Shown: positions 20,474 to 46,872, counted from the first letter of the stretch. The stretch is 64,000 nt of DNA from Candidatus Omnitrophota bacterium (GCA_016201795.1 JACQCF010000027.1:113161-177160), one strand, 5' to 3'. Numbers and translations are program-made. Notes: generated by a model not told the origin, from the letters alone.

Positions 20474-21796
20474 ATGGCTTCTCAACAACCTATCAATTTC
20501 TTGGAGCTCGATTTTAACGATGAATTCGTTTCTGCCTTTGATGCTCTGGAAAACTCCCCTCGGCATTTGTTTGTCACTGGCAAGGCGGGGACGGGAAAAT
20601 CGACCCTTCTGCAGTATTTCCGTCATAAAACCACCAAAAACATTGCCGTATTAGCGCCCACCGGAGTGGCGGCCGTTAACATCAAAGGCCAGACTATTCA
20701 TTCGTTTTTCCAATTTAAACCCGATATTACGCCGGAAGCGGTTAACGATATCATGGTGCGCAAACGCAAACAAAAAATGTACGCCACCTTAGATGCTATT
20801 GTGATTGATGAGGTTTCCATGGTTCGCGCGGATTTGCTCGATTGTATTGATAGTTTCTTACGTCGCTTCGGTCCGGATTATTCCAAGCCTTTTGGTGGAA
20901 TTCAAATGATTTTATTTGGGGATTTGTTTCAATTACCGCCGGTGGTCTCCAAGAACGAAGAAGAGATTTTTCGCAGCGTCTATACCAGCCCCTATTTTTT
21001 TTCCGCTAAAGTTTTCAAACACATTGACCTTAAAATTTTGGAATTAAAAAAGATTTACCGCCAGAGAGACGAAAATTTTATCCATTTACTCAATGCGGTA
21101 CGTCATAATCAATTACAGGACCATCATGTACATGCTTTCAACAGCCGCCATCATAGTAAGGTAAATTTTAAAAGGGATGATTTTTATATCACTTTGACGA
21201 CTACCAACGCGATAGCCGAGGCGGTCAATACCAGTCGGCTTAAAGAATTACCGGGTCAGGAATATGTGTATCAGGGAATCGTTTCCGGTGAGTTTGAGCG
21301 TAAAAGTCTAGCGACTCAGGAAGTGCTTTGTTTTAAGAAGGACGCTCAGGTGATGATGCTCAACAATGACGTTGACAAACGCTGGGTGAACGGCTCTTTG
21401 GGGGTGATCAGCGATGTGCATCAGAATCAGGGCGATGATATTATTCTGGTGAAACTGGAAAACGGCCAGACGGTGGATGTGAAAAAATATACCTGGGAAA
21501 TTTATCAGTATTATTTCGATACCGTCTCTAAGAACCTTGCCTCCAAGGTCATTGGTTGTTTTACGCAATATCCTTTCAAACTGGCCTGGGCGGTCACCAT
21601 TCACAAATCGCAGGGGCAGACCTTTGAACGCGTGATGATTGATATGGGCTATGGTGCCTTTGCCCACGGGCAAATGTATGTGGCTTTAAGCCGCTGTACG
21701 TCTTTGGAAGGAATCATTCTTAAAAAACTTATCGCCAAAAATCATGTTCTTATGGATAATCGTATCCATGAGTTTATGGATAGATGCTTAATATGA
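20474..21796 (+). CDS. Pif1-family (RecD-like SF1B) DNA helicase
   Basis: 440 aa; Walker A GKAGTGKST, LAPTGVAA, DEVSMV (motif II), and C-terminal HKSQGQTF..ALSRCTSLEGI characteristic of bacterial Pif1 helicases. Confidence 0.7.
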   Translation: MASQQPINFLELDFNDEFVSAFDALENSPRHLFVTGKAGTGKSTLLQYFRHKTTKNIAVLAPTGVAAVNIKGQTIHSFFQFKPDITPEAVNDIMVRKRKQKMYATLDAIVIDEVSMVRADLLDCIDSFLRRFGPDYSKPFGGIQMILFGDLFQLPPVVSKNEEEIFRSVYTSPYFFSAKVFKHIDLKILELKKIYRQRDENFIHLLNAVRHNQLQDHHVHAFNSRHHSKVNFKRDDFYITLTTTNAIAEAVNTSRLKELPGQEYVYQGIVSGEFERKSLATQEVLCFKKDAQVMMLNNDVDKRWVNGSLGVISDVHQNQGDDIILVKLENGQTVDVKKYTWEIYQYYFDTVSKNLASKVIGCFTQYPFKLAWAVTIHKSQGQTFERVMIDMGYGAFAHGQMYVALSRCTSLEGIILKKLIAKNHVLMDNRIHEFMDRCLI

Positions 21797-33515: not shown

Positions 33516-34388
33516 ATGCCTTACGATCCTTCCATTGACGATGCGAATCCCGATAAAAAAAGCGTCTTTGGGGTCATTGTGCATTCGTTTTTTGTGATCC
33601 CGTTTTTGCTGGCGATTTTTAGCGTTTTATTGCTGGTGTCGGTGCGTATTTTGACGATGGAAAAACGCGATGTGAATGATTATCTGGAAGATGTCAAAAC
33701 CGGCAGTTTAACCAAACGCTGGCAATCGGCTTTTGAACTCTCACGTATTCTTTCGAATCCTACTATGGTGCCGCATGATGAAAAATTTACCCGTCACATG
33801 ATGATGGCGTTTGAAAAATCCAAAAATGATGATGACCGTGTGCGTCAATACCTGGCTTTGGCCATGGGAAAAAGCGGCATCCAGGATTTTGTGGATGTTT
33901 TGATGAAAGCCGCACCAGAGGAAAAAGACGAAAACTTATATGCAATTATTACGAGCCTTGGTATACTAAAAAACAATAAGGCCATACCTGTTCTTTTAAA
34001 TGTTCTTAATAACGATAACGCACATTTGCGTTTGGTAGCTGTGATTGCATTGGGCAATATCGCTGATGGGCGAACCATTGCACCTTTAAAACACATGCTC
34101 AATGACCCACAGCCCAATGTCAGCTGGGATGCCGCGATTGCTTTAGCCAAAATGGGGAATAAATCAGGGAAAGCTATTATTTTGAATTTGCTTGACCGTC
34201 ATTATTTGGATCAAATTCCGCACCTCAATCCTCAAGAGCAAAGCCGTATCATGATGGTGGCGATTTCAACCACAGCAACCTGGCATGATGCTGATATTAA
34301 AAACATTTTAAAAGAACTTTTTGATAATGATAAAAATATGAACGTTCGTACTTTAGCGCGTCGCGTTTGGGAAGAATCTCATGGCTGA
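33516..34388 (+). CDS. HEAT / PBS-lyase-like repeat membrane-anchored protein
   Basis: 290 aa; N-terminal TM (VIVHSFFVIPFLLAIFSVLLLV) then repeated AL..LG...D.RA...L..AL helical pairs; 8-bp overlap with the Rieske gene. Confidence 0.55.
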   Translation: MPYDPSIDDANPDKKSVFGVIVHSFFVIPFLLAIFSVLLLVSVRILTMEKRDVNDYLEDVKTGSLTKRWQSAFELSRILSNPTMVPHDEKFTRHMMMAFEKSKNDDDRVRQYLALAMGKSGIQDFVDVLMKAAPEEKDENLYAIITSLGILKNNKAIPVLLNVLNNDNAHLRLVAVIALGNIADGRTIAPLKHMLNDPQPNVSWDAAIALAKMGNKSGKAIILNLLDRHYLDQIPHLNPQEQSRIMMVAISTTATWHDADIKNILKELFDNDKNMNVRTLARRVWEESHG

Positions 34389-34926
34389 TCAAAAACTTCC
34401 AGTCGCAGCGAATCAACCTCATTCTTCTAATAATGTATCCGGTGAAATGGACCGGCGATCCTTTATTAAATGGTCGCTCATCGGCTGGGGAGCTTTTGTA
34501 GCGGCCGTTGGCGGTTATGGTTCCATGGTCGTACGCTTTCTTTTTCCCAATGTGCTTTTTGAACCCGTACAGACATTTCGTGTGGGAACACCGGAAGAAT
34601 ATGAGGTGGGTGTTTCCGAGCAGTTTAAGGAAAGATATGGCGTTTGGATCGTACGTGACAGTGAAAAAATTTTTGCGCTTTCGACCGTCTGCACGCATCT
34701 GGGCTGCACACCTAATTATTTAACTGCCGAACAAAAATTTAAATGCCCCTGCCATGGCAGCGGCTTTTATATCAGCGGCATTAATTTTGAAGGTCCAGCA
34801 CCACGTCCTCTGGAGAGGTTTAAAATTTATCTCTCTGATGAAGGGGAAATCATCGTCGATAAAACTAAGAAATTTCAGCAGGAAAAAGGAGAGTGGTCAG
34901 ACTCTGATTCATTTATAACCGTATGA
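34381..34926 (+). CDS. Rieske [2Fe-2S] subunit of a cytochrome bc-type complex (Tat signal)
   Basis: Twin-arginine motif DRRSFIKW; Rieske boxes CTHLGC and CPCHGS. Confidence 0.8.
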
Positions 34927-35720
34927 GCATAGATCCTAACAAATTTTCTTTGTTTGAAAAATTCAAAAATACCCAATTTTACCGCTCCGTTTTTCGTACC
35001 GGCGTGCCGGTGGTCTCCCACCGTCAGCGTATGATGATCATGCTTAACAGTGTTTTTTTGCATTTGCACCCGGTGCGTTTGCCCAAACACGCGGTGAAAG
35101 TTCGTTACACCTGGTGCATGGGAGGCTTATCGTTTTTTATCTTTTTAGTGTTAACCGTTACGGGAATTCTTTTAATGTTTTATTATCGGCCGACCATTGA
35201 ATATGCCTATGGCGATGTCCTCGATTTAAGCCAGCAGGTACCTTTAGGGATTATGCGTGAAATCCACCGTTGGGGTGCGCATTTGATGGTCATTACCGTG
35301 TGGCTGCATATGTTCCGTGTTTTTATGACGGGCTCTTATAAACCGCCGCGAGAATTTAACTGGGTCATTGGTGTGTGCCTCCTGGTTACAACCATGCTTT
35401 TGAGTTTTACCGGTTACCTGCTGCCCTGGGATCAATTAGCTATTTGGGCGATTACCGTGGGTTCTAATATGGCTGGGGCTACACCGTTTTTAGGCATGAA
35501 CGGCCCGGGATCCTCTCTGTTAAGTATAGGGGATGTAAATTTTATCACTTCCGTTTCAGACGCGCGTTTTGCTCTGTTGGGCGGCCGTTTTGTAGGGGAA
35601 GCCGCTCTGCTTCGTTTTTACGTCTTACACTGCATAGGTTTACCGTTTATTATCATGATTTTTATGATTGTCCATTTCTGGCGTGTCAGAAAAGACGGAG
35701 GAATTTCCGGTCCTACTTAA
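34923..35720 (+). CDS. Cytochrome b, N-terminal (b6-like) half
   Basis: 265 aa, 4 TM helices with conserved haem-ligand His context ([20 protein letters not shown]). Confidence 0.8.
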
Positions 35721-35721
35721 T

Positions 35722-36840
35722 ATGATGGACGCTATTAAACATTTCATCAATTTTATCGCGGCCCCCAAAATTCTTTTTAACGTGATTTTGCTGTCTTACC
35801 TGATCATTTTCCCACCGATTAAACCTTTTCAAATTATCCATAATACCCTGGGCGTGGACCGTCTGTGGACCAAAAAAGGGGGGATTTTTATTTTCAGTTT
35901 GATGTTTTTGGCGTTTGGTTTTGGTTTGACCGATCCCAATTTTCGTCTGATTGTTCTTAAACCCGATAATGTGCCGATTGTCGCCTTGTTATTTTTAGTG
36001 GTTTTCTTTTTATGGTTTGCTTTAACCCAGGCCAAAGCCAATGATGAAGCGATCGCCAAGGGTGGCAAACCCAAGGAATGGGCAGAGTCCCGTGAAAAAG
36101 TTTTAGTCTTTCCGGATTTAGTTTATATCGAATTTATCGCTTTAATTGTCGCCGCGGCTTTGCTGGCCGTATGGGCCATTGCCCTGCAGGCACCGCTGGA
36201 ACAGCCAGCCAATCCCACGGTTTCACCGAACCCTTCCAAAGCACCCTGGTATTTCCTGGGTTTACAAGAAATGCTGGTGTATTTTGATCCATGGATTGCG
36301 GGGGTAGTTTTTCCGACGGTGATTATTTTAGGGATGATGTGCATTCCTTATTTGGATAAGAACCGCAAAGGTTTGGGCTATTACACCTATCAAGACCGCA
36401 AAATGGCCATTAATATTTTTATGTTTTTCTGGCTGGTGTTGTGGGTGTTTTTGATTTCCATTGGTACCTTTTTACGCGGTCCCAACTGGAATTTTTTTGG
36501 TCCCTTTGAATACTGGGATCACGATAAATTGGAGGTACTCAATAACGTCAATCTTTCAGAATATGTCTATATGATCGGTTTAAAGCAAGGGCTGCCTTCT
36601 AATATTTGGCTGCGCGAGGCACCGGGTTTTGCGGTGTTGATTGTTTATTTTGGACTGTTGCCGGCGATTTTAGCCAAAACAGCCTTCAAAGACGTGTACC
36701 AGCGTCTAGGCGTTGTGCGTTACAGTATTTTTGTGGTGCTTTTGCTCATGGCTCTGGCATTACCGATTAAGATGTATTTGCGCTGGCTGTTTAACATCAA
36801 ATACATTGTCGCCATACCGGAATACTTTTTTAACATATAA
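35722..36840 (+). CDS. Cytochrome b C-terminal half / subunit-IV-like protein with extra N-terminal helices
   Basis: SKAPWYFLGLQEMLVYF (PEWY-like motif) and multiple TM helices; starts immediately after the stop of the N-terminal half (split b6/SUIV arrangement). Confidence 0.65.
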   Translation: MMDAIKHFINFIAAPKILFNVILLSYLIIFPPIKPFQIIHNTLGVDRLWTKKGGIFIFSLMFLAFGFGLTDPNFRLIVLKPDNVPIVALLFLVVFFLWFALTQAKANDEAIAKGGKPKEWAESREKVLVFPDLVYIEFIALIVAAALLAVWAIALQAPLEQPANPTVSPNPSKAPWYFLGLQEMLVYFDPWIAGVVFPTVIILGMMCIPYLDKNRKGLGYYTYQDRKMAINIFMFFWLVLWVFLISIGTFLRGPNWNFFGPFEYWDHDKLEVLNNVNLSEYVYMIGLKQGLPSNIWLREAPGFAVLIVYFGLLPAILAKTAFKDVYQRLGVVRYSIFVVLLLMALALPIKMYLRWLFNIKYIVAIPEYFFNI

Positions 36841-36843
36841 TTT

Positions 36844-39843
36844 ATGCCTGCTCAACTGCCCCCTGAATCACATTACGATCCAAAAAATTTAGGAAAAATC
36901 TTCGCTCTGGTGGCGGTGGTTTTGTTGCTGTCGATCATCGGCATTTTTGTCAAAGATTATTCCCGTCAGTGGAAAGATTATCAACGTCAGTTTCATGCGT
37001 TAGAGGTTGAAAAGACCAGAATAAAACTAGATGAGCAAGAGAATGATTTAGCCAAGAATAATGAGTATCAGAAACTTCTTAAAGACCTTGAAGAGGCTCA
37101 AAATAAATTACACGAGCAGGATTCAAAGATGAATCTGATCAATGGGCAAATCAAAGCCGTAGATACTGTTAAGAGAATCCACACCAAAGAAGCGCAATTT
37201 GCCAAGGCTCAGTATGGCGCTTTGAAGTATCGTTACGAGAAAGCGCTGCATGAATCCCAGATGGATGCCAGTCAGTTGAAAAATCGATTGGATGATTTGG
37301 TCTTAAAGATTGAAAAATTACGTCTGCTTCTTGAAGCTGACGATGCGGATATGAAAGCTAAAGAAAATATGATGGCGGCCCTTCAAAAAAATTTTAAAGA
37401 ATTGGATAAAAAACGGTCTGCTTTTACCAAAAAAACTGAAGTCATCAAACGCAAATTAAAGAAAACGGACTTAGCGCAAATGAGCGCGGCCAATCAGGCG
37501 GCGGATATGGTGCGGGATTTGCCGTTTATCGAATTGGCTAATCCCAATTATAAAATCCATCAAATTGTGCTCAAAGACATTCCCGAAGATATCAATTTCA
37601 TGAAGACCCAAAGGGTGGACCGCTGCACCACCTGCCATTTAGGTATTGATAATCCCGACTTTCAAAACGCGCCCCAGCCGTTTACTACCCATCCACATTT
37701 AGAACTTTTTATGGATAAAAATTCGCCGCATCCTCTGGAAGAGTTTGGTTGCACCACCTGCCATATGGGACGCGGGCGGGGTACTGATTTCATTTCTGCG
37801 GCCCATACGCCCCGCGATGCAGAGCAGAAAAAAGAGTGGGAGAACAAATACAGCTGGTATGAACTGCATCACTGGGATCAGCCCATGCTGGCAGGGCCTT
37901 TAACCGAGGCTGGATGCTTTAAATGCCATGAAAACCAGACAGTCATTAAGGGAGCTGAAAAGTTAAACTTAGGGCTTAATTTGATTGAACGCGCCGACTG
38001 TTATAATTGCCATACGATTACAAAATATCAAGATTGGCCAAAATCCGGACCCAATTTGGAATTTATAGCCTCTAAGTCCACCAGAGAATGGGCTTATCAT
38101 TGGATCGATGACCCCAAATCCATTCGTTTTAACACTTGGATGCCGTCCTTCTTTCATCAATCCAATAACAACGACGCTGAATCGACCAAACGGGGTCAGC
38201 AGGAAGTACATGCCATTGTTGAGTATCTGTTTGCTAATAGCAAACCGTTTAGAGTAGATGCCATTCAATCTACCAGCCCCAAGTTGGGGGATGAAAAAAT
38301 TGGTAAAGAGCTGGTGGCTTCTTTAGGATGTTTGGCCTGTCATCAAGTGGAAAATCAAAAGACTAAGACGCCCCGCACACGGGATTCTTTACACCGCGAG
38401 TTTGGGCCTAATTTAATCGGTTTGGGCAGCAAAACCACCAAAGAATGGCTGTATCAGTGGCTTAAAGATCCTAGCCAATATCATCCTGGTGGCCGCATGC
38501 CTAATATGCGCTTATCCGATAAGGAGACTGCCGATATCGCGGCTTATCTTATTCAAGATAAATCATCACTGGTTAATAAACCTATTCCACCGGTGGATAA
38601 TAAAGTTCTTAATGCTATTGTCATGGATTTCTTAAAGAAATCTTCAACACTGAACGAATCTCAAGATCAGGTTAAAAGTATGAACCAGGAAGACAAATTG
38701 GTTTTTGCCGGTAAACGTTTGATTAGAGAATACGGTTGTTATGGTTGCCATCAAATTCCCGGCTTTGAAAATGAGAAGCCTATTGGTACGGAGTTAAGCG
38801 AAGAAGGATCCAAAGACCTGGAACGCTTGGATTTTGGTTTTATTAATATTGAGCATAGCAAACAGGCCTGGTTTAAACAGAAGCTGATGAATCCGCGTAT
38901 TTTTGATAAACAGAAGGTCAAGCAGCCGTTGGATAAACTCAAAATGCCTAATTTTAATTTCACCAGCGATGAGGCTGATGCTATCACCACCGCTTTGATG
39001 GGCTTTGTCAAAGATCGTCCTGGTCATGCGAAGATGGCGGATCAGAGTATGAAAACCGCTTTTATTAATGAGGGCGCCAAAACCATCCGTCAGCTTAATT
39101 GCCAGGGCTGTCATATGATTGATGGCGAGGGTGAGGCCATTCAAAGTACCGTTACCGATTGGCTGGTGGCGTACCAGGCTAGAGACCTTAATGATGCCCA
39201 GGCCGTCACTAAAAGTTTTTCACCGCCCAATCTTGTCGGTGAAGGACAAAAGGTGCAGGCCCAGTGGCTGTTTGAATTCTTGCATGGGCCCACACCCATT
39301 CGTCCTTGGCTTCATGTGCGTATGCCCACCTATAGTTTTCATGCTTCACAAATCAATTCCATTATCAAATATTTTAATTATTTGGATGATCAGGAATTTC
39401 CCTTTACTGATATTTATCATCCTAATTTGGCCAAAGAAGACCTCGAAGCAGCGGAAAAATTATTCTCTAAAGATTATTTTGGCTGCGCCTCCTGCCATAT
39501 CGTAGGCCATCAAATGCCCGGCGGATCCGCCGACAGCTGGGCTCCGGATTTTGCCCTGGCGGCCAAACGTTTAAAACCAGAGTGGATTGTCAAATGGATT
39601 ACCAATCCGCAGGATTTGTTGGTCGGCACAAAAATGCCGACGTATTATGATCCCAATAACTTTAATGCCTCAGCCCCGAGTAATATTTTAGGAGGAGATG
39701 CCAAACGTCAAATTCAAATTTTGCGTGATTATTTATTGACGATTTCTGAACATCCACCGCAGGTTAAGCCTGCTCCAGTAAAAGTGGAAGATAAAACTAA
39801 CCAGGCACCAGAAGACCACACACAAACCAATCAGAGCAAGTAG
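36844..39843 (+). CDS. Membrane-anchored octahaem c-type cytochrome with long N-terminal coiled coil
   Basis: 999 aa; N-terminal TM, ~170-residue K/E/Q-rich heptad region, then eight CxxCH motifs: CTTCH, CTTCH, CFKCH, CYNCH, CLACH, CYGCH, CQGCH, CASCH. Confidence 0.75.
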   Translation: MPAQLPPESHYDPKNLGKIFALVAVVLLLSIIGIFVKDYSRQWKDYQRQFHALEVEKTRIKLDEQENDLAKNNEYQKLLKDLEEAQNKLHEQDSKMNLINGQIKAVDTVKRIHTKEAQFAKAQYGALKYRYEKALHESQMDASQLKNRLDDLVLKIEKLRLLLEADDADMKAKENMMAALQKNFKELDKKRSAFTKKTEVIKRKLKKTDLAQMSAANQAADMVRDLPFIELANPNYKIHQIVLKDIPEDINFMKTQRVDRCTTCHLGIDNPDFQNAPQPFTTHPHLELFMDKNSPHPLEEFGCTTCHMGRGRGTDFISAAHTPRDAEQKKEWENKYSWYELHHWDQPMLAGPLTEAGCFKCHENQTVIKGAEKLNLGLNLIERADCYNCHTITKYQDWPKSGPNLEFIASKSTREWAYHWIDDPKSIRFNTWMPSFFHQSNNNDAESTKRGQQEVHAIVEYLFANSKPFRVDAIQSTSPKLGDEKIGKELVASLGCLACHQVENQKTKTPRTRDSLHREFGPNLIGLGSKTTKEWLYQWLKDPSQYHPGGRMPNMRLSDKETADIAAYLIQDKSSLVNKPIPPVDNKVLNAIVMDFLKKSSTLNESQDQVKSMNQEDKLVFAGKRLIREYGCYGCHQIPGFENEKPIGTELSEEGSKDLERLDFGFINIEHSKQAWFKQKLMNPRIFDKQKVKQPLDKLKMPNFNFTSDEADAITTALMGFVKDRPGHAKMADQSMKTAFINEGAKTIRQLNCQGCHMIDGEGEAIQSTVTDWLVAYQARDLNDAQAVTKSFSPPNLVGEGQKVQAQWLFEFLHGPTPIRPWLHVRMPTYSFHASQINSIIKYFNYLDDQEFPFTDIYHPNLAKEDLEAAEKLFSKDYFGCASCHIVGHQMPGGSADSWAPDFALAAKRLKPEWIVKWITNPQDLLVGTKMPTYYDPNNFNASAPSNILGGDAKRQIQILRDYLLTISEHPPQVKPAPVKVEDKTNQAPEDHTQTNQSK

Positions 39844-39846
39844 AAC

Positions 39847-40620
39847 ATGCTCGTCAAATTATTATTTTTAAGCTTACTCATTTTTGGCGTTACTTACCCG
39901 TTGTGTTTTTGGATATCCTTCAAAGACCCTATTAAAAACCATTTCCTACGATTTCATTTAGGTTGTCCTGTTTTTTTAGTAGGCTTAGCGCTTATGGGAT
40001 TACAATTCTTTAACATTGACGGGCATTTGAAATTATGGTTATGGGTTTGGTTTATCTGTGCCTTGTTGTTGATGGCTTATTTTTGGAACAAAGAAACCGT
40101 GCATTTAGGCCTTGTGACGCTGCTTTGTTGGTGGGGCATTAAGCTCTATACTTTATTTTACAGCTCTTGGGTGGGCCCTTCATTCCAAGAGATTGCGGTG
40201 AGCATTTTAGCGGGGTTAATTTTGTCAGCGGTGTTTTATGCCATGAACCTGGGGCATTTTTATTTGAATGTTCATGGGCTTAAACTGTATCATTTGAAAA
40301 ATGCCGTGATGGTTTTTGGAACATTGGTGCTGCTTCGCCTGTTGTGGAACATTTATGGAATAATGGCTTTTAAGACCATGTACGGGGGAGAACAGGTCAC
40401 TTTAAGGTATTTTATGACCACCACAGAAGGGACTTTTTTAGGAGTGGCTTTATTTTTTGGTGTTTTATTTCCTTTTGGTTCTTTGTATTTTATTTTTGGC
40501 ACCTTAAAGCTTAAAAATACGCAGGCTACCACCGGTCTTTTGTATGTTATTTTAAGCGCGGTGTTATTGGGGGATTTGGCGTATAAATATTACCTTTTGA
40601 GACACTCCATACCTTTATAA
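39847..40620 (+). CDS. Polytopic integral membrane protein (hypothetical, operonic with bc complex)
   Basis: 257 aa, ~8 predicted hydrophobic helices, starts 4 nt after the cytochrome c stop. Confidence 0.4.
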   Translation: MLVKLLFLSLLIFGVTYPLCFWISFKDPIKNHFLRFHLGCPVFLVGLALMGLQFFNIDGHLKLWLWVWFICALLLMAYFWNKETVHLGLVTLLCWWGIKLYTLFYSSWVGPSFQEIAVSILAGLILSAVFYAMNLGHFYLNVHGLKLYHLKNAVMVFGTLVLLRLLWNIYGIMAFKTMYGGEQVTLRYFMTTTEGTFLGVALFFGVLFPFGSLYFIFGTLKLKNTQATTGLLYVILSAVLLGDLAYKYYLLRHSIPL

Positions 40621-40622
40621 TT

Positions 40623-41033
40623 ATGCCGACGATTTCCCGTTTTTGTCCACAATGTAAGAAATATGCCCGTCTAAACGTCTTAGATGATAAAGCTTTGATT
40701 TGCCCTCACTGTCAAAACCAGTGGGGAAAGATTACAAAGCTAGAGACTATTTTTGAGCGTTGTCCTATATGTACCTGCCGGCAATTTTATACCGATAAAG
40801 ATTTTAATCAGGTTTTAGGGTTTTTAGTTATGGCGGTGGGTGTCGTGCTAGTGCCGCTGACCTATGGGTTAAGCCTAGCGGTTTTTGCTTTGATTGATTG
40901 GCTCATTTACCGCAAAGTCGCTAAACTGGTGGCCTGTTACCGCTGCGGGGGCGAATTTCGGGGGTTTAATATTCCTTCCCAACTCAAAGGCTTCATGCAC
41001 CATATCGGATTAAAATACGATAAATACCGTTAA
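40623..41033 (+). CDS. Double zinc-ribbon membrane protein (hypothetical)
   Basis: 136 aa; CPQC..CPHC and CPIC..CYRC pairs flanking two TM helices. Confidence 0.4.
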   Translation: MPTISRFCPQCKKYARLNVLDDKALICPHCQNQWGKITKLETIFERCPICTCRQFYTDKDFNQVLGFLVMAVGVVLVPLTYGLSLAVFALIDWLIYRKVAKLVACYRCGGEFRGFNIPSQLKGFMHHIGLKYDKYR

Positions 41034-41057
41034 TTTGATGTTAAATCAAAATATTAC

Positions 41058-41085
41058 TTGACATTTGAAAACGTTCTGCTAATAT
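41058..41085 (+). promoter_or_regulatory. sigma70-like promoter (TTGACA-16-TAATAT) heading the T4SS-like cluster
   Basis: Consensus -35 at 41058-41063, -10 TAATAT at 41080-41085, within the only sizeable (150-bp) intergenic gap of the region. Confidence 0.35.
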
Positions 41086-41192
41086 CCTTTGTAGATTTAT
41101 CAATTAAAAAAATTCATTTGGGATTCCCCCCATCCCAACAGTAGTGGCAGCAAATACTTTACTCATTTCCCCTACCCTTAAGATTGTTTTCG

Positions 41193-42389
41193 ATGGACAT
41201 TTTTGGATTGACATCCATTGATACCGCTTTAGCCACCTGGGGTTTAAACAGCGCACAAAAACTCACTGTGTTTTTATTTATACAAACTCCTGCAGGTATT
41301 GCCGCTTTTGCCACAGGTTTTCTTTGGAGTCTGTGGCAGTCTGTCCAAGAAAGTAATTTTAAGTATTTCGCTGTTTTCATTTTTATTTCTTTAACGGGTA
41401 TCCTGCTTTTGATAACACCCCAACGCCCAGAACCCGCCATTAAAAGCGCCATGGAAGCGTATGGCACAAACAGTGGTATCACAGCTAAATCTCTGAAAGA
41501 TTCTCAAACCAATGAACATCGTATGCCAGTGGTGTTGTCTTTCATTGGACAAATGTTCGATGCCATGAACATAGGCGCCATTTCTATTTTTGATAGCACT
41601 TTAACTGGTAACACTCGTTTTCTGAGTAATCCCTTTGGCCTTCAAAAGATTTCTTTGCAGGCCAACTACATTGTTAATAGCTCCATTGCTGATGTGCGTC
41701 TTAAAGAAGATTTGGATGATTTTATTTATGCCCATTATCTGCCTTCTCTCATGATGTATAAGAACGACGCCAGCTCTTTAAGTGATTTTTATTCTCTTTG
41801 GCCCGGGCATACGAAGATTCTTGGCTATTATTCCTCCAACGAGCGTAGTCAATGGGACGATCTTAAAAGCCGTCTAACACGTTTGATCAATGACCCTCAA
41901 GGTCCATGGCCCAAAATTAAAAATATATTAAAACAGATGAATACTCAAAATGATAATTTAGATGACCAAATCATGGCCTCTATCATTCAAGGGCAGTCGC
42001 ATCATTCTACTGGTCGTTGGTGGCTTTATTGGACAGGGTGGGTACAAACTTTTTTCCCTTATATTTACGGCGCGGGTAATTTTTGTCTATATGCCGGATT
42101 CCCTATGTTGATGCTGGCTATGATGATTATGCGGCGTATGAGTTTATTTTTAAGATATGCTGAAATGTTTATCTGGATTAAATCTTGGGCCTTGACAGCT
42201 GCCATGAGTTATTACATTTCGCTGATGGTCGCCGGTCTGCAGGCACAGACTTCATCCCAGGCAAATTGGTTTTGGGATTATCCCTATTATGTGGTTGTCG
42301 CCAGTATTCTTTTATGTTTAATACCCATTTTAACTTTGGTAAGCATTCATTATAGTTTTCAACTGATCAACAATCATTCTTTTACCTAA
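41193..42389 (+). CDS. Polytopic membrane protein with VirB6/TrbL-like topology (tentative)
   Basis: Two N-terminal TMs, ~200-aa hydrophilic loop, 3-4 C-terminal TMs (WWLYWTGWVQTFFPYIYG...). Assigned by topology and context only, with no diagnostic motif. Confidence 0.3.
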   Translation: MDIFGLTSIDTALATWGLNSAQKLTVFLFIQTPAGIAAFATGFLWSLWQSVQESNFKYFAVFIFISLTGILLLITPQRPEPAIKSAMEAYGTNSGITAKSLKDSQTNEHRMPVVLSFIGQMFDAMNIGAISIFDSTLTGNTRFLSNPFGLQKISLQANYIVNSSIADVRLKEDLDDFIYAHYLPSLMMYKNDASSLSDFYSLWPGHTKILGYYSSNERSQWDDLKSRLTRLINDPQGPWPKIKNILKQMNTQNDNLDDQIMASIIQGQSHHSTGRWWLYWTGWVQTFFPYIYGAGNFCLYAGFPMLMLAMMIMRRMSLFLRYAEMFIWIKSWALTAAMSYYISLMVAGLQAQTSSQANWFWDYPYYVVVASILLCLIPILTLVSIHYSFQLINNHSFT

Positions 42390-42399
42390 GGAGGAGGGT

Positions 42400-42678
42400 A
42401 TGTTTAAAAAGAAAGTATTCAACATCATAGTTAGTACAGGATTGTTCTGGTTAATCAAAATATCTAATGTTTGGGCGGATGACCCCATGGCTACAACTAC
42501 TGATTTCTCAACAAAGATGATAGATATTATTAAAGGTCCTGTTTTAAAATTATCAGCCGCAGTTGTACTTTTGGTGGGCGCCGTTGGACTGTTGCGCGGT
42601 CGTCATAGGCTAGCCATTTCTTGCGGTTTGGCTTTCTTGCTTCTTTTATTTTTACCCATTTTATTAAGTCATGTTTAA
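42400..42678 (+). CDS. VirB2/TrbC/TraA-like conjugative pilin
   Basis: 92 aa: signal peptide (..ISNVWA), then two hydrophobic helices separated by the basic RGRHR turn, which is the hallmark architecture of T4SS pilins; strong AGGAGG SD. Confidence 0.5.
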   Translation: MFKKKVFNIIVSTGLFWLIKISNVWADDPMATTTDFSTKMIDIIKGPVLKLSAAVVLLVGAVGLLRGRHRLAISCGLAFLLLLFLPILLSHV

Positions 42679-42692
42679 GGAAAGAATTCATT

Positions 42693-43007
42693 ATGAATCG
42701 AAAATGTCCACGTACCCTGGATAAACCGCTTCTATTGTTTGGACTAGAGGGGGAGGATGTTGCCCTATTAGCGCTAGTAGGGGGAGTAGGCAGTATTCTT
42801 TTTGGTCCTATTATTCCAGGGACATGCGCCATTGTCGGCTGGATTGTCTTAATGCAGTTTAAAAAGGATAAACCATCAGGGTATTTATTACACTGGCTTT
42901 ACGCCCAAGGGATTGATTTCCCTGGACTTATTCCACCCATCAAAAAAGTTGAGCGATACGGTATTTATGGAACAACCCCTTATGTCAAAAAATTCGCCGT
43001 TTGTTGA
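42693..43007 (+). CDS. TraL-like (F-type) / VirB3-class small T4SS membrane protein
   Basis: ~104 aa; P.TLD...L.FGLEGED...ALVGG hydrophobic core and downstream WLY motif resemble the TraL family; RBS AAGGAAAG. Confidence 0.45.
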   Translation: MNRKCPRTLDKPLLLFGLEGEDVALLALVGGVGSILFGPIIPGTCAIVGWIVLMQFKKDKPSGYLLHWLYAQGIDFPGLIPPIKKVERYGIYGTTPYVKKFAVC

Positions 43008-43572
43008 ACGATGGTCGAGGGCAGAGGTTGTTAATGCCAAATTAGGAGTCACGCTCATGGTTATAGGATTGATATGTCTGAGCCTAACGACCACCTTAAT
43101 CTATATCATCACCAAAGCACAGCCAATTTACTATGTACCGGGCGCCTCGTCTGCAGGTATAGCTTATGCTCAAACCACCTCTAAAACGACTGTAGCGATT
43201 TTCACCTCTTCCTGGGTATTGAACTGGTCGAATTTCACCCCTGCCACCGTCGAGGATGTGTACAAACATGCCGAACGGTTCATGTCTCCGCATTTATTAG
43301 CCCAAACAAGGACAAGGCTCAAAAAAGACCTTGAGCAGGTTAAAAATAACCATATGTCTTCCTTATTTTCTTTAAATCAGGAGCCTTTGGTGCAGGAAGA
43401 TCAACAGGGGTTTAATGTCACCATCCAGGGAGATAAAGGCATTTATATGGGCAAAGAAGAGATTAAGCTGCAAAAAATGATTTATCACCTACATTTAAGG
43501 TTATCGCCAGCAACGGATTGGAACCCGTATGGCTTGATTATTGAGGATATTTCTCAGGAGGTGGTGGGATGA
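42982..43572 (+). CDS. TraE / VirB8-like bitopic protein
   Basis: Short cytoplasmic N-terminus, one TM (LGVTLMVIGLICLSLTTTLIYII) and ~150-aa periplasmic domain; position after TraL-like matches the F-type order. Start uncertain because it overlaps the TraL-like 3' end. Confidence 0.4.
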   Translation: MSKNSPFVERWSRAEVVNAKLGVTLMVIGLICLSLTTTLIYIITKAQPIYYVPGASSAGIAYAQTTSKTTVAIFTSSWVLNWSNFTPATVEDVYKHAERFMSPHLLAQTRTRLKKDLEQVKNNHMSSLFSLNQEPLVQEDQQGFNVTIQGDKGIYMGKEEIKLQKMIYHLHLRLSPATDWNPYGLIIEDISQEVVG

Positions 43573-44252
43573 AAAGGATCATTTTTCTTATATTACTGTT
43601 AGCAGGGCTTTCTTCATGCGTTTTGCCAGCTAGCGCTTCTAATTTCAAGGACCAGGGTAAGCCAATAGATATTCAAGTGGAAGTGGGCAAAGTTACGGAA
43701 GTGGTTTTTCCAGCCAAGGTGGCTAAGGTGGTTAAAGGCGGGGCTGTCGATTCGGTGCTTGTCGAGGTGTTGGATAATTCTGTTTATATGTTGCCCAAAA
43801 CAGATGACCCCTCGGACATTTTTGTGATGACGACTTCGGGCAACAGCTACCCGTTAAATCTTCATATCAGTAGGGAACACGATATTAAAGTGCAGATAGG
43901 ATCTTTCAATCATCAGCCTAAGTTTTCTGCAGGTGTTTATGGGGATGTGATGGATTTGATGAAAGATTTACTTTTACAGAAAGAGCCGGCAGGGGCTACC
44001 GCTTTGCCGGGGGGCAATCAGGTGCTTTTGGCTAATCGACAAATTCAATTAAAAGTTGATAAGGCTTATGAGCTGGCAGGTTGGAAAGCCTATGTGTTAA
44101 CTGCTCGGAATCTTATGAACAATGCCGTCATTATTCCTATTGAACAAATGACGTTGCCTAATCTTTTGGCGGTTAGTTCTGATCAAGATATGTTAGCCGC
44201 CAAAGGCCAGCAGGGCGACGCCGCCAAAGTGTATGTGATTATGAGTAAATAA
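43569..44252 (+). CDS. TraK / VirB9-like secretin-N-domain protein
   Basis: Signal/lipobox LLLLAGLSSC; beta-rich N-domain with a DIFVMTTSGNSYPLNL-type strand pattern as in the VirB9/TraK/CagX N-terminus. Confidence 0.5.
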   Translation: MKRIIFLILLLAGLSSCVLPASASNFKDQGKPIDIQVEVGKVTEVVFPAKVAKVVKGGAVDSVLVEVLDNSVYMLPKTDDPSDIFVMTTSGNSYPLNLHISREHDIKVQIGSFNHQPKFSAGVYGDVMDLMKDLLLQKEPAGATALPGGNQVLLANRQIQLKVDKAYELAGWKAYVLTARNLMNNAVIIPIEQMTLPNLLAVSSDQDMLAAKGQQGDAAKVYVIMSK

Positions 44253-44253
44253 A

Positions 44254-45384
44254 ATGAATTTACAACCATTGCAAGATTTTATTAAGAAACAGCCTTTGGT
44301 CGTTGGGATAGGAGGCTTATTAGTTTTAGCGGTATTAGGATTATGGATGATGCATCAACCATTTAAGAAAGCTTCTTCAATAGCATCCGGGGCCAATGCT
44401 TCTAAAGATATTGGAATTTCCATCGGTGGAGCGGATCAACAGGCGTACATGGCCCGTCTGGAAAAAAATTATTATGACTTTGAAGAGCGGGTTAAAGATG
44501 TGGAAACTCAGCTCAAGAGTATGCAATCCACGGCGCAAGAGCTTAAAAATTCTCAAAAGGATATTGCGCAGACGGTTCTTAAACTGGATCAGGGTTTAGG
44601 AGTCAAGATGGACCAGCACCTTGAGGAATTCAAAACCAGCTTGGAGTCTGCTCAAAACAATGCTCCAGAGGAGTCTCCAGAGAAGGATGTGGAGTTATCG
44701 GTGGCAGATATCAATCCAACAGCCCAGGAGGATTGGGTGTATTTGCCCATCGGCAGTTTTTGCCAGGGAACTTTACTGACCGGCGTATATGCGGCGGCGG
44801 ATGCCAGTAATCCTTTACCGGTTTTAATTTCCTTAGATGAGGCTTTTTACGGGCCTAATAAAACCCGCATTCCACTTAAAGGGGCATTTGTGTTAGGTAA
44901 AGCCTACGGTGATTTAACCTCTCAGAGGGCGCTTATGCAAATTGTGGCCGTATCCGCTGTTTTACCCAACGGCCATGCGTTTGAAAATGAGCAGGATTTA
45001 GGCTATGTCACCGATGAGTTTGGGGAGCTTGGTATCAAAGGTCAGGTGGTTTATAACACGGGCCGCCAGCTGGCGATTTCTTTGTTGGGGGGATTTGTCT
45101 CTGGAGGGTCTCAGGCTGTTGCGGACAGTCAGGTGACCACGCATAAAACTTTGCAGGGAGATACGAGTAAAGACGTGACGGGTAGTCCCTCTAAAAATTT
45201 ACTGTTTTCAGGGCTGGCTCAAAGCGCGGGTAAGTTAGCCGAATTTTATCAAAAACAGGCTGAGGACCTGGTGCCTGCGGTGCATATTAAAAACGGTGCT
45301 AAAGTATTTTTCATTGTCCAAAAAGGAGTGACGATCAATGGGTTGGCTAAGAGCAATTTTAATCATCAGCGTTTTATGGATTAA
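44254..45384 (+). CDS. TraB / VirB10 (TrbI domain) protein
   Basis: 376 aa; N-terminal TM, coiled-coil linker, C-terminal TrbI-like domain (LPIGSFCQGTLLTGV...PVLISLDEAFYGPNKTRIPLKGAFVLGKAYGDLTSQRALMQI...LPNGHAF). Confidence 0.7.
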   Translation: MNLQPLQDFIKKQPLVVGIGGLLVLAVLGLWMMHQPFKKASSIASGANASKDIGISIGGADQQAYMARLEKNYYDFEERVKDVETQLKSMQSTAQELKNSQKDIAQTVLKLDQGLGVKMDQHLEEFKTSLESAQNNAPEESPEKDVELSVADINPTAQEDWVYLPIGSFCQGTLLTGVYAAADASNPLPVLISLDEAFYGPNKTRIPLKGAFVLGKAYGDLTSQRALMQIVAVSAVLPNGHAFENEQDLGYVTDEFGELGIKGQVVYNTGRQLAISLLGGFVSGGSQAVADSQVTTHKTLQGDTSKDVTGSPSKNLLFSGLAQSAGKLAEFYQKQAEDLVPAVHIKNGAKVFFIVQKGVTINGLAKSNFNHQRFMD

Positions 45385-45760
45385 CGGTTGCACTTCCAGT
45401 AAGGCCGTTCAAAAAAATAAAGTACAGCCTCTAACGATGATGGACATTTACGCCCAAAGCGCGGGGCAAGCGCAAAAAGACGTAACTAAGTTTATCGAAA
45501 ATAATCTTAAAGAAGAAAAAACCTTTGGGTATGTCAAACCTTATATACCTGTGATGAATGATCCGGTGGTACGCAAGGTGTGGATTCCCGATCATAAATC
45601 TGAAGATAATCCCGATGTGATGATCGCCGGCCACTGGAGCTATGTGATGATTCAACCGCCCACGTGGTTTATCGATGGAAAAACCGTTGAAGCTCAATTA
45701 CCGGTGATTGTTCCTTCAGAATCCTCTATCCACAGCCAATCGCAGAAGCCAAACCATTAG
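45338..45760 (+). CDS. TraV-like / VirB7-class lipoprotein (tentative)
   Basis: 140 aa; lipoprotein-type signal LWINGC. Position directly after the VirB10-like gene matches F-type TraV; overlaps the TraB-like 3' end by 47 nt. Confidence 0.35.
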   Translation: MGWLRAILIISVLWINGCTSSKAVQKNKVQPLTMMDIYAQSAGQAQKDVTKFIENNLKEEKTFGYVKPYIPVMNDPVVRKVWIPDHKSEDNPDVMIAGHWSYVMIQPPTWFIDGKTVEAQLPVIVPSESSIHSQSQKPNH

Positions 45761-45951
45761 GTGTACCGCAAATGATAGATTCTCTGACCATCGTTGAAAT
45801 TCTTCCTAAATAGTTTATAATTAATACCAATACTTGTTGGTAGTAAACCCCCTTGGCGGGAATTGAAAAAATCGATATACATTCTGGTAATATTTTGTAT
45901 AATCAATTTTCAATTTTTTTATCGAGAAAATAATTGTAGAAGGTAAAATCA

Positions 45952-46024
45952 GGGACATTAGCTCATCCGGTAGAGCATCTGACTCTTAATCAGAGGGTGG
46001 CTGGTTCGAGTCCAGCATGTCCCA
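45952..46024 (+). tRNA. tRNA-Lys (anticodon CTT)
   Basis: 73-nt cloverleaf folded by hand: acceptor GGGACAT/ATGTCCC, D-arm GCTC..GAGC, anticodon stem TCTGA/TCAGA with loop CTCTTAA, T-arm GCTGG-TTCGAGT-CCAGC; CCA not encoded. Confidence 0.85.
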
Positions 46025-46050
46025 TATTACAATCGTTGAGGATTCTTAGC

Positions 46051-46872
46051 GTGCTAAAACAATCTCTTGATCTTAAAAAGTTAGCTGCCTTAGCTCCTCA
46101 ATTCCGTCGGGAAATCCTGGAAACTTTAGAAATAGCAGGTTCCGGTCATCCGGGCGGGTCTTTGTCCGGGGTTGAGATCATGTTGGCGTTATATGGCCAT
46201 GCCATGCGCTATGATCCTAAGAATCCTGGTTGGGAAGAGCGTGACCGTTTGATTGTCTCCAAAGGCCATGCAACACCTCTGGTCTATGTGACCCTGAGCA
46301 ATTTCGGCTATTTTCCCAAAGAAGAATTAAAGACCTTCCGTAAATTCGGCTCCCGCTTGCAAGGTCATGTGCATACTAAAGCCCCCGGAGTTGAATTTAA
46401 TACCGGCTCTTTGGGACACGGGCTTTCCTTTGCCAATGGCGTGGCTTTAGGCGCGAAAATACGCGGCAAAAATTTTAAAGTGTATTGTCTTTTGGGCGAC
46501 GGGGAAAATCAGGAGGGGTCGGTGTGGGAAGCGGCCATGAGCGCGGCGCATCATAAATTAGATAATCTCTGCGCGATTATCGACTATAATAAGGTGCAGG
46601 AAAATGGGCCGACGAATGAAATTAAAAATCTAGAGCCGCTGGCTAAAAAATGGGAAAGCTTTGGCTGGCATGTGTTTGAGGTAGATGGTCATAATATCAA
46701 AGAACTGGTTAGCGCCTTTGATGAATTAAAAAACATTCAAGGTAAACCCACGGTGATCATTGCACATACGGTTAAAGGCAAAGGCGTTTCTTTTATGGAA
46801 GGCAAAAGCAACTGGCATGGCAAGGCGCCCAATAAAGAACAGTTGGCTCAGGCTTTGGCGGAGTTAAAATAA
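46051..46872 (+). CDS. Transketolase, N-terminal (TPP pyrophosphate-binding) subunit
   Basis: GSGHPGGSLS and GDGE.QEG motifs; GTG start chosen downstream of the tRNA (in-frame TTG at 46036 is also possible); the track ORF start overlaps the tRNA and is rejected. Confidence 0.8.
   Translation: MLKQSLDLKKLAALAPQFRREILETLEIAGSGHPGGSLSGVEIMLALYGHAMRYDPKNPGWEERDRLIVSKGHATPLVYVTLSNFGYFPKEELKTFRKFGSRLQGHVHTKAPGVEFNTGSLGHGLSFANGVALGAKIRGKNFKVYCLLGDGENQEGSVWEAAMSAAHHKLDNLCAIIDYNKVQENGPTNEIKNLEPLAKKWESFGWHVFEVDGHNIKELVSAFDELKNIQGKPTVIIAHTVKGKGVSFMEGKSNWHGKAPNKEQLAQALAELK

Follow-up and report, generated by a model that had tools for sequence, protein, structure and literature searches.

A probable two-locus F-like type IV secretion system in an Omnitrophota genome: seven envelope genes set apart from traC

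Introduction

The tra operon of the F plasmid opens with the genes for the pilin, TraL, TraE, TraK, TraB, TraV and TraC, in that order. In F-type type IV secretion systems (T4SSs), the inner-membrane complex is composed of TraE, TraL, a VirB6-like protein and hexamers of VirB4, and a VirB2-type pilin is assembled into the pilus. The ComB system of Helicobacter pylori serves DNA uptake and consists of VirB2, B3, B4 and B6-B10, without VirD4 or VirB11; its genes are distributed over two loci, and the ATPase is encoded in a different operon from B6-B10. The rvh system of the Rickettsiales is a functional T4SS of a host-dependent bacterium, encoded in several unlinked chromosomal islets. The present analysis concerns a stretch of 64,000 nucleotides from a Candidatus Omnitrophota bacterium (GCA_016201795.1, JACQCF010000027.1:113161-177160), hereafter termed the window, which carries a VirB6-like gene followed by six genes in the F order, from the pilin to TraV, and lacks a gene for the VirB4-type ATPase, TraC. 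The evidence favors a system that is divided between two loci.

Members of the Omnitrophota are abundant, uncultured and ultra-small, and are thought to be predators or parasites. A host-dependent or predatory lifestyle has been proposed for the phylum (PMC10066038), and intron RNA of Candidatus Velamenicoccus archaeovorus has been reported within dead archaeal prey (PMC13153191). Published genomic surveys of Omnitrophota treat Tad pili, type IVa pili, giant proteins and ATP/ADP translocases. T4SSs, VirB4 and tra genes are not mentioned in the Omnitrophota papers that could be searched, including that of Seymour et al. 2023, in which TXSScan was used, and the supplements of two Omnitrophota papers hold no Tra or T4SS entries. 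A chromosomal, relaxase-less F-like system appears to be undescribed in this searchable literature, the family itself being partly named in GenBank.

Results

The seven genes and their products

The cluster occupies positions 41193-45760 of the plus strand, where seven intact, coupled open reading frames (ORFs) follow one another with successive spacings of +10, +14, -26, -4, +1 and -47 nt. The genes and the elements that border them are:

41035..41049, plus strand: palindromic operator-like site TTGATGTTAAATCAA (TTGAT-N5-ATCAA), just 5' of the -35 box
41058..41085, plus strand: sigma-70-type promoter TTGACA-16-TAATAT, found by a consensus scan, with TG preceding the -10 box
41193..42389, plus strand: traG_N-like gene, 398 amino acids (aa), polytopic inner-membrane VirB6 analogue (NCBI hypothetical protein HY209_07495)
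42400..42678, plus strand: precursor of a VirB2/TrbC-type pilin, 92 aa, with a leader that ends at a conserved Ala, then two hydrophobic helices
42693..43007, plus strand: traL, VirB3-like, 104 aa; Pfam TraL 1.5e-7 (above gathering score), TIGR02762 8e-6
42982..43572, plus strand: traE, VirB8-like, 196 aa, with one N-terminal transmembrane segment
43569..44252, plus strand: traK, VirB9-like, 227 aa, predicted to be secreted
44254..45384, plus strand: traB, VirB10-like, 376 aa, comprising a transmembrane segment, a coiled coil and a TrbI domain
45338..45760, plus strand: traV, VirB7-like lipoprotein, 140 aa, lipobox INGC; Pfam TraV 0.015, below cut-off
45952..46024, plus strand: tRNA-Lys(CTT), by ARAGORN and Rfam; a boundary marker outside the system, 191 nt past the traV stop

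TraB gave the strongest match (Pfam TrbI/VirB10, 5.8e-21, above its cut-off) and also matched the NCBIfam model for F-type TraB (5e-20; 71.8 bits, under that model's 504-bit equivalog cut-off). Of its 272 homologues, those listed under an organism name belong to the Omnitrophota or to an unclassified "bacterium". TraE likewise exceeded the Pfam gathering score (1.3e-10; TIGR02761, 4e-12), and its start at 42982 agrees with NCBI protein MBI3602720. The window's TraB is 100% identical to MBI3602722.1, and the metagenome-assembled genome (MAG) bears the locus-tag prefix HY209_; the contig measures 200,936 bp, and traV is HY209_07525, gene number 1505. NCBI names only TraB and TraK, the latter as "type-F conjugative transfer system secretin TraK"; the remaining five proteins are annotated as hypothetical.

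Taken singly, the other products fell below the Pfam cut-offs: the product of the traG_N-like gene (ORF1) with 2.7e-4 for TraG_N, the pilin with 2.7e-3 for TrbC/VirB2, and TraK with 5e-4 for each of TraK_N and TraK_C. These weak assignments, with that of TraV, were rechecked at the level of the family by scanning 127 orthologues from related loci with hidden Markov models (HMMs). The TraV model matched 28 of 33 orthologues (best 1e-6), the TrbC pilin model 20 of 28 (best 1.8e-6) and TraG_N 12 of 31 (best 2.8e-14), while TraK_N and TraK_C matched 14 and 12 of 35, respectively (best 1.5e-5 and 3e-6). Judged by these family-wide matches, the below-threshold assignments of TraV, the pilin, TraK and TraG_N hold up. 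ORF1 and its orthologues (341-462 aa) correspond to the TraG_N domain only; the alignment of relatives and the NCBI protein both point to the conserved ATG at 41193 as the start, and the hydrophobic segments were identified by hydropathy. For the pilin, the alignment and the hydropathy profile were also inspected, and hydropathy and lipobox checks were consistent with the predicted topologies. In the TraV family the cysteine is conserved, together with the motif GYVKPY..VRKVW.P.H..GHW. Since the orthologue alignment shows that the cysteine of TraK is not kept across its family, TraK is probably secreted rather than lipidated. Profile searches of PDB sequences gave TrwF as the best, marginal match for the TraK alignment (E 0.16) and no usable match for those of TraV and the pilin.

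Much of this had been anticipated in an earlier interpretation, made from the nucleotide sequence without database searches (the sequence-only reading). Its seven packed plus-strand frames agree with the ORF calls, its promoter TTGACA-16-TAATAT was located as listed above, and its proposal that HMMs be run on the seven proteins led to T4SS families in every case. It had also correctly recognized TraL, TraE, the TrbI/VirB10 protein as the strongest match, the TraV/VirB7 lipoprotein, the F-like order from the pilin to TraV, the housekeeping setting and an end about 190 bp before tRNA-Lys. Other assignments stood in part. ORF1 is indeed a VirB6 analogue, but its family is the F-type TraG_N and not TrbL or VirB6 itself; the pilin is of the VirB2/TrbC type as proposed, but is not F TraA; and TraK is TraK/VirB9-like, but the cysteine of the lipobox ascribed to it lacks conservation in the family.

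An operon interrupted between traV and traC

Neither the VirB4-family TraC that characterizes a locus of mating-pair formation type F (MPF-F), nor the relaxase, type IV coupling protein (T4CP) and integrase or replication functions of a conjugative element were found in the 64 kb, in agreement with the sequence-only reading. In the Pfam analysis of every other ORF of at least 150 aa, VirB4, VirB11, VirD4/T4CP, relaxase and integrase were all absent. Searches of the 64 kb by tblastn with Omnitrophota TraC, T4CP, secretin and T2SSE/PilB-like queries returned nothing even at E<5, and 3' of traV no remnant of TraC, secretin or T2SSE was detected.

Related loci (designated by L numbers) were collected by scanning one genome per GTDB species with the TraB alignment, which yielded 47 loci, and by two exact look-ups. 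The 47 loci are nearly all from Omnitrophota, some being labelled "uncultured Planctomycetales". Their synteny, established by tblastn, follows the order traG_N, pilin, traL, traE, traK, traB, traV, traC, a lipoprotein of 135-165 aa and a secretin; three or four small proteins come next, followed by T2SSE- and T2SSF-type genes. In L051, type IV pilin genes lie upstream of the cluster. The TraC proteins of the related loci are about 840 aa long and contain TraC_F_IV and P-loop domains. With TraC included, the Omnitrophota locus holds equivalents of VirB2, 3, 4, 6, 7, 8, 9 and 10 only.

In all of the related loci whose sequence extends beyond traV (38 of 38), the next gene is traC, and in 31 of the 35 loci measured the two genes overlap or lie within 5 nt of each other. 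The window is the sole exception among the loci examined: its traV is followed by tRNA-Lys(CTT), which stands where all relatives have traC, and by transketolase. The junction from traV through tRNA-Lys to transketolase was recovered with 100% identity over 3.2 kb in independent Logan assemblies of two single runs, and hence no chimera of binning or assembly occurs there. The comparison with related genomes that had been suggested earlier thus shows a cluster that is widespread in Omnitrophota and in no way peculiar to this genome, while the tRNA-Lys after traV is found only here. By its synteny, the seven-gene set is the promoter-proximal (5') half of this widespread operon, and its ATPase-less appearance is very probably a consequence of the 64-kb view.

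Some related loci carry variations of their own. In the Velamenicoccus clade an insert between traG_N and the pilin gene (L001:3700-6725) encodes a 254-aa protein with a weak match to Replic_Relax (E 4e-5, below cut-off) and a 754-aa T4CP-like ATPase; equivalents occur in L017, L018, L020, L023, L024, L025, L033, L042 and L044, and in V. archaeovorus the insert after traG_N also carries NYN and Imm_superinfect genes. Among the loci compared, the T4CP and the weak Replic_Relax match are confined to this clade, in which DNA or RNA transfer may be possible, to judge by these genes. A 3-kb insertion separates traB from traV in L004 (L004:11187-14043), with ORFs judged by eye to be glycosyltransferase-like, radical-SAM-like, AbrB-like and PIN-like, and the traV-traC spacers of L014 and L016 measure about 550 nt; the operon therefore tolerates interruption. 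The cluster is present twice, in diverged form, in each of three MAGs, namely L017 and L028 (PCRK01), L036 and L040 (JADFWS01) and L021 and L041 (CAYOMI01), with TraB identities of 86%, 56% and 75%, respectively; these represent either paralogous systems or mixed bins. The full cluster of L038 (DYOU01000021.1) is labelled Candidatus Elulimicrobium sp., Patescibacteria group, in the NCBI taxonomy, so that either the system extends past Omnitrophota or the label reflects unsettled taxonomy.

A lineage-matched TraC and the closest relative

The TraC protein of L003, a 69% relative, was used as a query in the search for the missing ATPase. The best non-self match was P0130 (MBI3601277.1), a protein of 843 aa encoded on a 13,847-bp contig, with the Walker A motif GASGAGKS and the Walker B-like motif LLIDE. 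When the identities of P0130 to 18 other TraCs were compared with those of the window's TraB to the partner TraBs, the best correlation was obtained (r=0.94), and P0130 fits the general TraB/TraC identity regression. P0130 precedes traV by 1,446 accessions; both belong to one MAG provided that the entries ahead of traV include at most 58 that are non-coding or pseudogenes. Judging from the combined fit, P0130 is in all likelihood the TraC of the window's own genome.

The closest relative, R, derives from a groundwater metagenome (ERZ978390 / ERR2108712 / GCA_900206355.1) and shares 83-88% nucleotide identity with the window (about 86%), its T4SS proteins being 81-93% identical. Over its first 193 residues, the TraC of R is 85.5% identical to P0130, and at most 67% identical to any other TraC. 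In four independent assemblies of R, the cytochrome bc-complex operon (cytochrome c, a 280-aa protein and a 136-aa protein) is followed by the same promoter and 5' untranslated region (UTR), homologous to those of the window up to the ATG, and the next gene is traC, not traG_N (L060:2598-2745, also L061-L063). The structural genes of R, from the end of traG_N through traK, are located on another contig. A tRNA-Lys 100% identical to that of the window lies 5' of transketolase in R (L059:86-158), inverted relative to the window. We infer that, in the lineage of the window and R, the two halves would be separate transcription units under common control, and that the two genomes would differ by a rearrangement through promoter copies.

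A conserved promoter and operator-like site

The promoter 5' of traG_N comprises a -35 box, TTGACA (41058-41063), and a -10 box, TAATAT (41080-41085), followed by a 5' UTR of ~107 nt that contains a conserved ATCAAT element (41099-41104) and matched no Rfam family. The 160 nt 5' of traG_N were aligned between the window and seven relatives, whose TraB proteins are 61-73% identical to that of the window. In these eight genomes the palindrome TTGAT-N5-ATCAA and the -35 box TTGACA are invariant, and each has a -10-like box after the -35 box and then a second ATCAA(T) element. Of the 34 related loci scanned, 22 have a related palindrome within the 200 nt that precede traG_N; the relatives that bear it reach down to 40% TraB identity, and the Velamenicoccus clade lacks it. 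In the 64 kb, the site at 41035-41049 is the only match to the palindrome.

In the unsplit relative L051, the traV-traC spacer of 155 nt holds a copy of the whole promoter module. This second complete operator-promoter module (L051:7789-7943, also L052:3171) consists of TTGATTTTTAATCAA, TTGACA, a -10 box and ATCAA. Thus this regulated promoter can also stand, as a separate copy, directly in front of traC; a second copy would make the traV-traC boundary a natural break point and provide two repeats able to recombine.

Surroundings of the cluster

The other ORFs of at least 150 aa in the window are all on the plus strand and of housekeeping type according to Pfam, including folate enzymes, PolA, Rho, RF1, tryptophan and menaquinone genes and enzymes of the tricarboxylic acid cycle. 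The cluster is directly preceded by a Rieske/cytochrome b/cytochrome c complex and directly followed by split transketolase and transaldolase genes. All credible genes in positions 1-64000 are on the plus strand, and the cumulative GC skew climbs from one end to the other; the entire window looks like leading-strand DNA on which the genes are extremely biased to one strand.

The upstream operon (33516-41033) encodes a HEAT-repeat protein, a Rieske protein, cytochrome b (split into N and C parts) and a 999-aa multi-haem cytochrome c, and ends with a 257-aa membrane protein and a 136-aa Cys-rich membrane protein, neither of which has a Pfam family. Relative R and the metagenome loci L053-L055 and L057 show the same gene order, whereas L056 and L058, which are shorter contigs, contain only the 3' end of the operon. 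In a metagenome scan with the upstream cytochrome c, the operon ended at the 136-aa gene every time. The neighbors past that gene are not conserved in more distant relatives, and for this reason the scan does not show which half of the secretion operon moved.

The gene for a 440-aa PIF1/RecD-like helicase (20474-21796; PIF1 3e-33, AAA_30) is flanked by menaquinone genes on one side and a transglutaminase-like gene on the other; the helicase lacks a relaxase domain, and nothing evident connects it with the T4SS. The longest ORF for the N-terminal transketolase subunit (45997-46872) begins at a GTG within tRNA-Lys, and its true start is at 46051, according to the 273-aa NCBI protein MBI3602724 and the Logan gene call.

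Discussion

A system probably divided between two loci

The cluster is probably one part of a two-locus F-like T4SS, likely to be co-regulated, in which the operon has been broken between traV and traC and traC resides at another locus. Of the possibilities raised by the sequence-only reading, a split T4SS with its ATPase elsewhere is thus the best supported, in view of the lineage-matched TraC and of the R traC behind the same promoter. The VirB4-type TraC encoded elsewhere would most probably be MBI3601277.1. According to one account (PMC8770708), the outer-membrane core complex of F consists of TraK, TraV and TraB, and the same three proteins would build the core here. TraE, TraL and TraG_N, with hexamers of TraC, would form the inner-membrane complex, and the VirB2-type pilin would form a pilus or conduit. 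The two halves would be kept in step by copies of one promoter with the putative TTGAT-N5-ATCAA operator.

The presumed task of such a machine would be contact-dependent interaction with a host or prey cell, through a pilus or the exchange of effectors or nucleic acid, rather than plasmid conjugation. A contact-dependent role is likely because the locus of this clade lacks a coupling protein and a relaxase, and its composition, which resembles that of ComB and Ptl, argues against classical conjugation in the clade. Interaction with a host is the most plausible role because of the predatory or host-dependent lifestyle proposed for these bacteria and the V. archaeovorus intron RNA reported from dead archaeal prey.

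Several points weigh against this two-locus interpretation. The assembly of one machine from two loci, its co-regulation and its substrate are read from sequence. The assignment of P0130 to the MAG, which is plausible but borderline, depends on accession arithmetic and phylogenetic fit. The promoter copy on the traC side of the window genome is deduced from R and L051. The Logan contigs of the window's own runs end at 41086 and resume at 41142, such that the join between the bc-complex, the promoter and traG_N is provided by the MAG contig alone. Finally, R has traC at the position of the window's traG_N, for which population variants or a repeat-mediated join are possible explanations.

Alternative explanations

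The alternative that survives best, although it is unlikely, is that the split disabled the system and left the seven genes as an orphaned remnant heading for decay. The window represents the only lineage of about 40 examined in which the operon is broken between traV and traC. Yet the seven frames are intact, and the native promoter and operator have been kept. At positions conserved in at least 85% of relatives, the window retains the family residue at 86 of 88 in TraB, 32 of 34 in TraE, 28 of 29 in TraG_N, 11 of 12 in the pilin and all of those in TraL (27), TraV (18) and TraK (16). This retention of 92-100% equals or exceeds the family median in six proteins, and in the seventh, the pilin, falls slightly short of it (0.92 versus 0.96). 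Moreover, R also keeps the structural block, at least from the end of traG_N through traK, as well as a traC located away from traV. If the arrangement in R is a true split, both halves appear to have persisted since before the divergence of the two genomes, which argues against a decaying remnant, in line with the sequence-only reading.

The suggestion that the cluster is a stand-alone envelope channel or pilus also goes back to the sequence-only reading, and is now very improbable. Such a module would operate without a dedicated VirB4; the type IV pilus ATPase might drive it, or it might be unpowered. It would account for 64 kb without an ATPase gene and for seven intact, conserved genes with a promoter of their own. 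However, traC is adjacent in all 38 related loci, mostly in translational coupling with traV, a lineage-matched TraC with intact motifs is found in the same accession block, and the closest relative keeps traC behind the same promoter. To our knowledge, no T4SS functions without VirB4.

It is equally improbable that part of an integrative conjugative element or of a genomic island was inserted beside tRNA-Lys. The adjacent tRNA gene, the tra-like character of the genes and a slightly lower GC content over traG_N, the pilin gene and traL would fit such an origin, but this content (0.385-0.40) is inside the range of the window, and the 64 kb contains no integrase, relaxase or T4CP. No direct repeats were found flanking the cluster, which lies 5' of the tRNA and not at its 3' end. 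Furthermore, the cluster is chromosomal in one closed genome, and in dozens of species it is found on large chromosome-like contigs with conserved neighbors.

A chimeric contig join, which would mean that the operon is not truly split, seems less probable still. The promoter region is duplicated in some genomes, Logan graphs branch within it, and R has a different partner behind the same promoter; but the junction of traV with tRNA-Lys and transketolase was reproduced independently, and an unverified upstream join would not put traC back beside traV. The cluster can hardly be a partial duplicate of a complete second cluster, given the lack of a second TraB from the MAG among the matches listed and a TraC candidate at the phylogenetic position expected for this cluster.

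A possible link to the type IVa pilus

The lipoprotein of 135-165 aa encoded after traC (L051:10462-10866, L001:14109-14561) is a paralogue of TraV (hhalign probability 97%, E 1.3e-10). In five lineages, the core of this paralogue is fused to the N-terminus of a PilQ-type secretin (probability 99.3%). The fusions are:

L026:8351-9763, TraV-paralogue/secretin fusion
L031:8163-9722, TraV-paralogue/secretin fusion
L032:13719-15380, TraV-paralogue/secretin fusion
L035:8154-9797, TraV-paralogue/secretin fusion
L037:7555-9141, TraV-paralogue/secretin fusion

The fusion points, tentatively, to a physical connection of T4SS and secretin. It is conceivable, albeit doubtful, that the chromosomal and relaxase-less minimal F-like T4SS of the phylum, probably inherited vertically, is coupled to a type IVa-pilus machine and that the two form the contact device through which these predators or parasites pass macromolecules into or out of larger cells, as with the intron RNA reported from the dead prey of V. 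archaeovorus. The coupling would be genetic, in that the tra genes and the secretin and PilB-like genes that follow them make up one operon, and possibly physical, through the fusion of the TraV paralogue to the secretin.

A minimal chromosomal F-like T4SS within a pilus cluster would be a candidate conduit for the transfer of molecules from predator to prey (PMC13153191). If the two-locus interpretation is true, the envelope half can be unlinked from the ATPase, with a duplicated operator-promoter to keep the two coordinated. The window would then represent a natural experiment, in which the structural genes stand apart from the ATPase gene and a duplicated promoter and operator offer a way to split an operon that nevertheless stays coordinated; the conserved operator would provide a handle for finding the regulator.

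Comparison with known systems

The system of Ca. Velamenicoccus archaeovorus (CP019384, 601-622 kb of a closed genome) is orthologous, with the same seven genes in the same order and a TraB that is 42-43% identical. In contrast to the window, V. archaeovorus keeps an adjacent traC (TraC_F_IV), carries a T4CP-like ATPase and a weakly Replic_Relax-like gene after traG_N, and lacks the TTGAT-N5-ATCAA palindrome upstream of traG_N.

With the F plasmid and pED208 (MPF-F), the Omnitrophota system shares HMM membership of TraL, TraE, TraK, TraB, TraV and TraC_F_IV. TraW, TraU, TrbC, TraN, TraF and TraH were found neither among the ORFs of the window nor in the Pfam lists within 10 kb on either side of the cluster in V. 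archaeovorus and L051. Unlike in F, the pilin matches TrbC/VirB2 (PF04956) and not TraA, TraG is represented by its N-terminal domain only, and the locus of this clade has no relaxase or TraD. Whereas F is plasmid-borne, the Omnitrophota system is chromosomal, widespread in the phylum and located within a type IVa pilus cluster.

The likeness to ComB and Ptl is one of composition, as judged from the locus plus TraC, which make up a minimal set without T4CP; ComB, too, is a two-locus system. The ComB proteins, however, are of the VirB type and not the F type, and in the present case the split is lineage-specific rather than the norm of the family. The rvh system, in turn, is of the P type (VirB/D), with VirD4, VirB11 and duplicated components, whereas here a single break parts the structural genes from traC.

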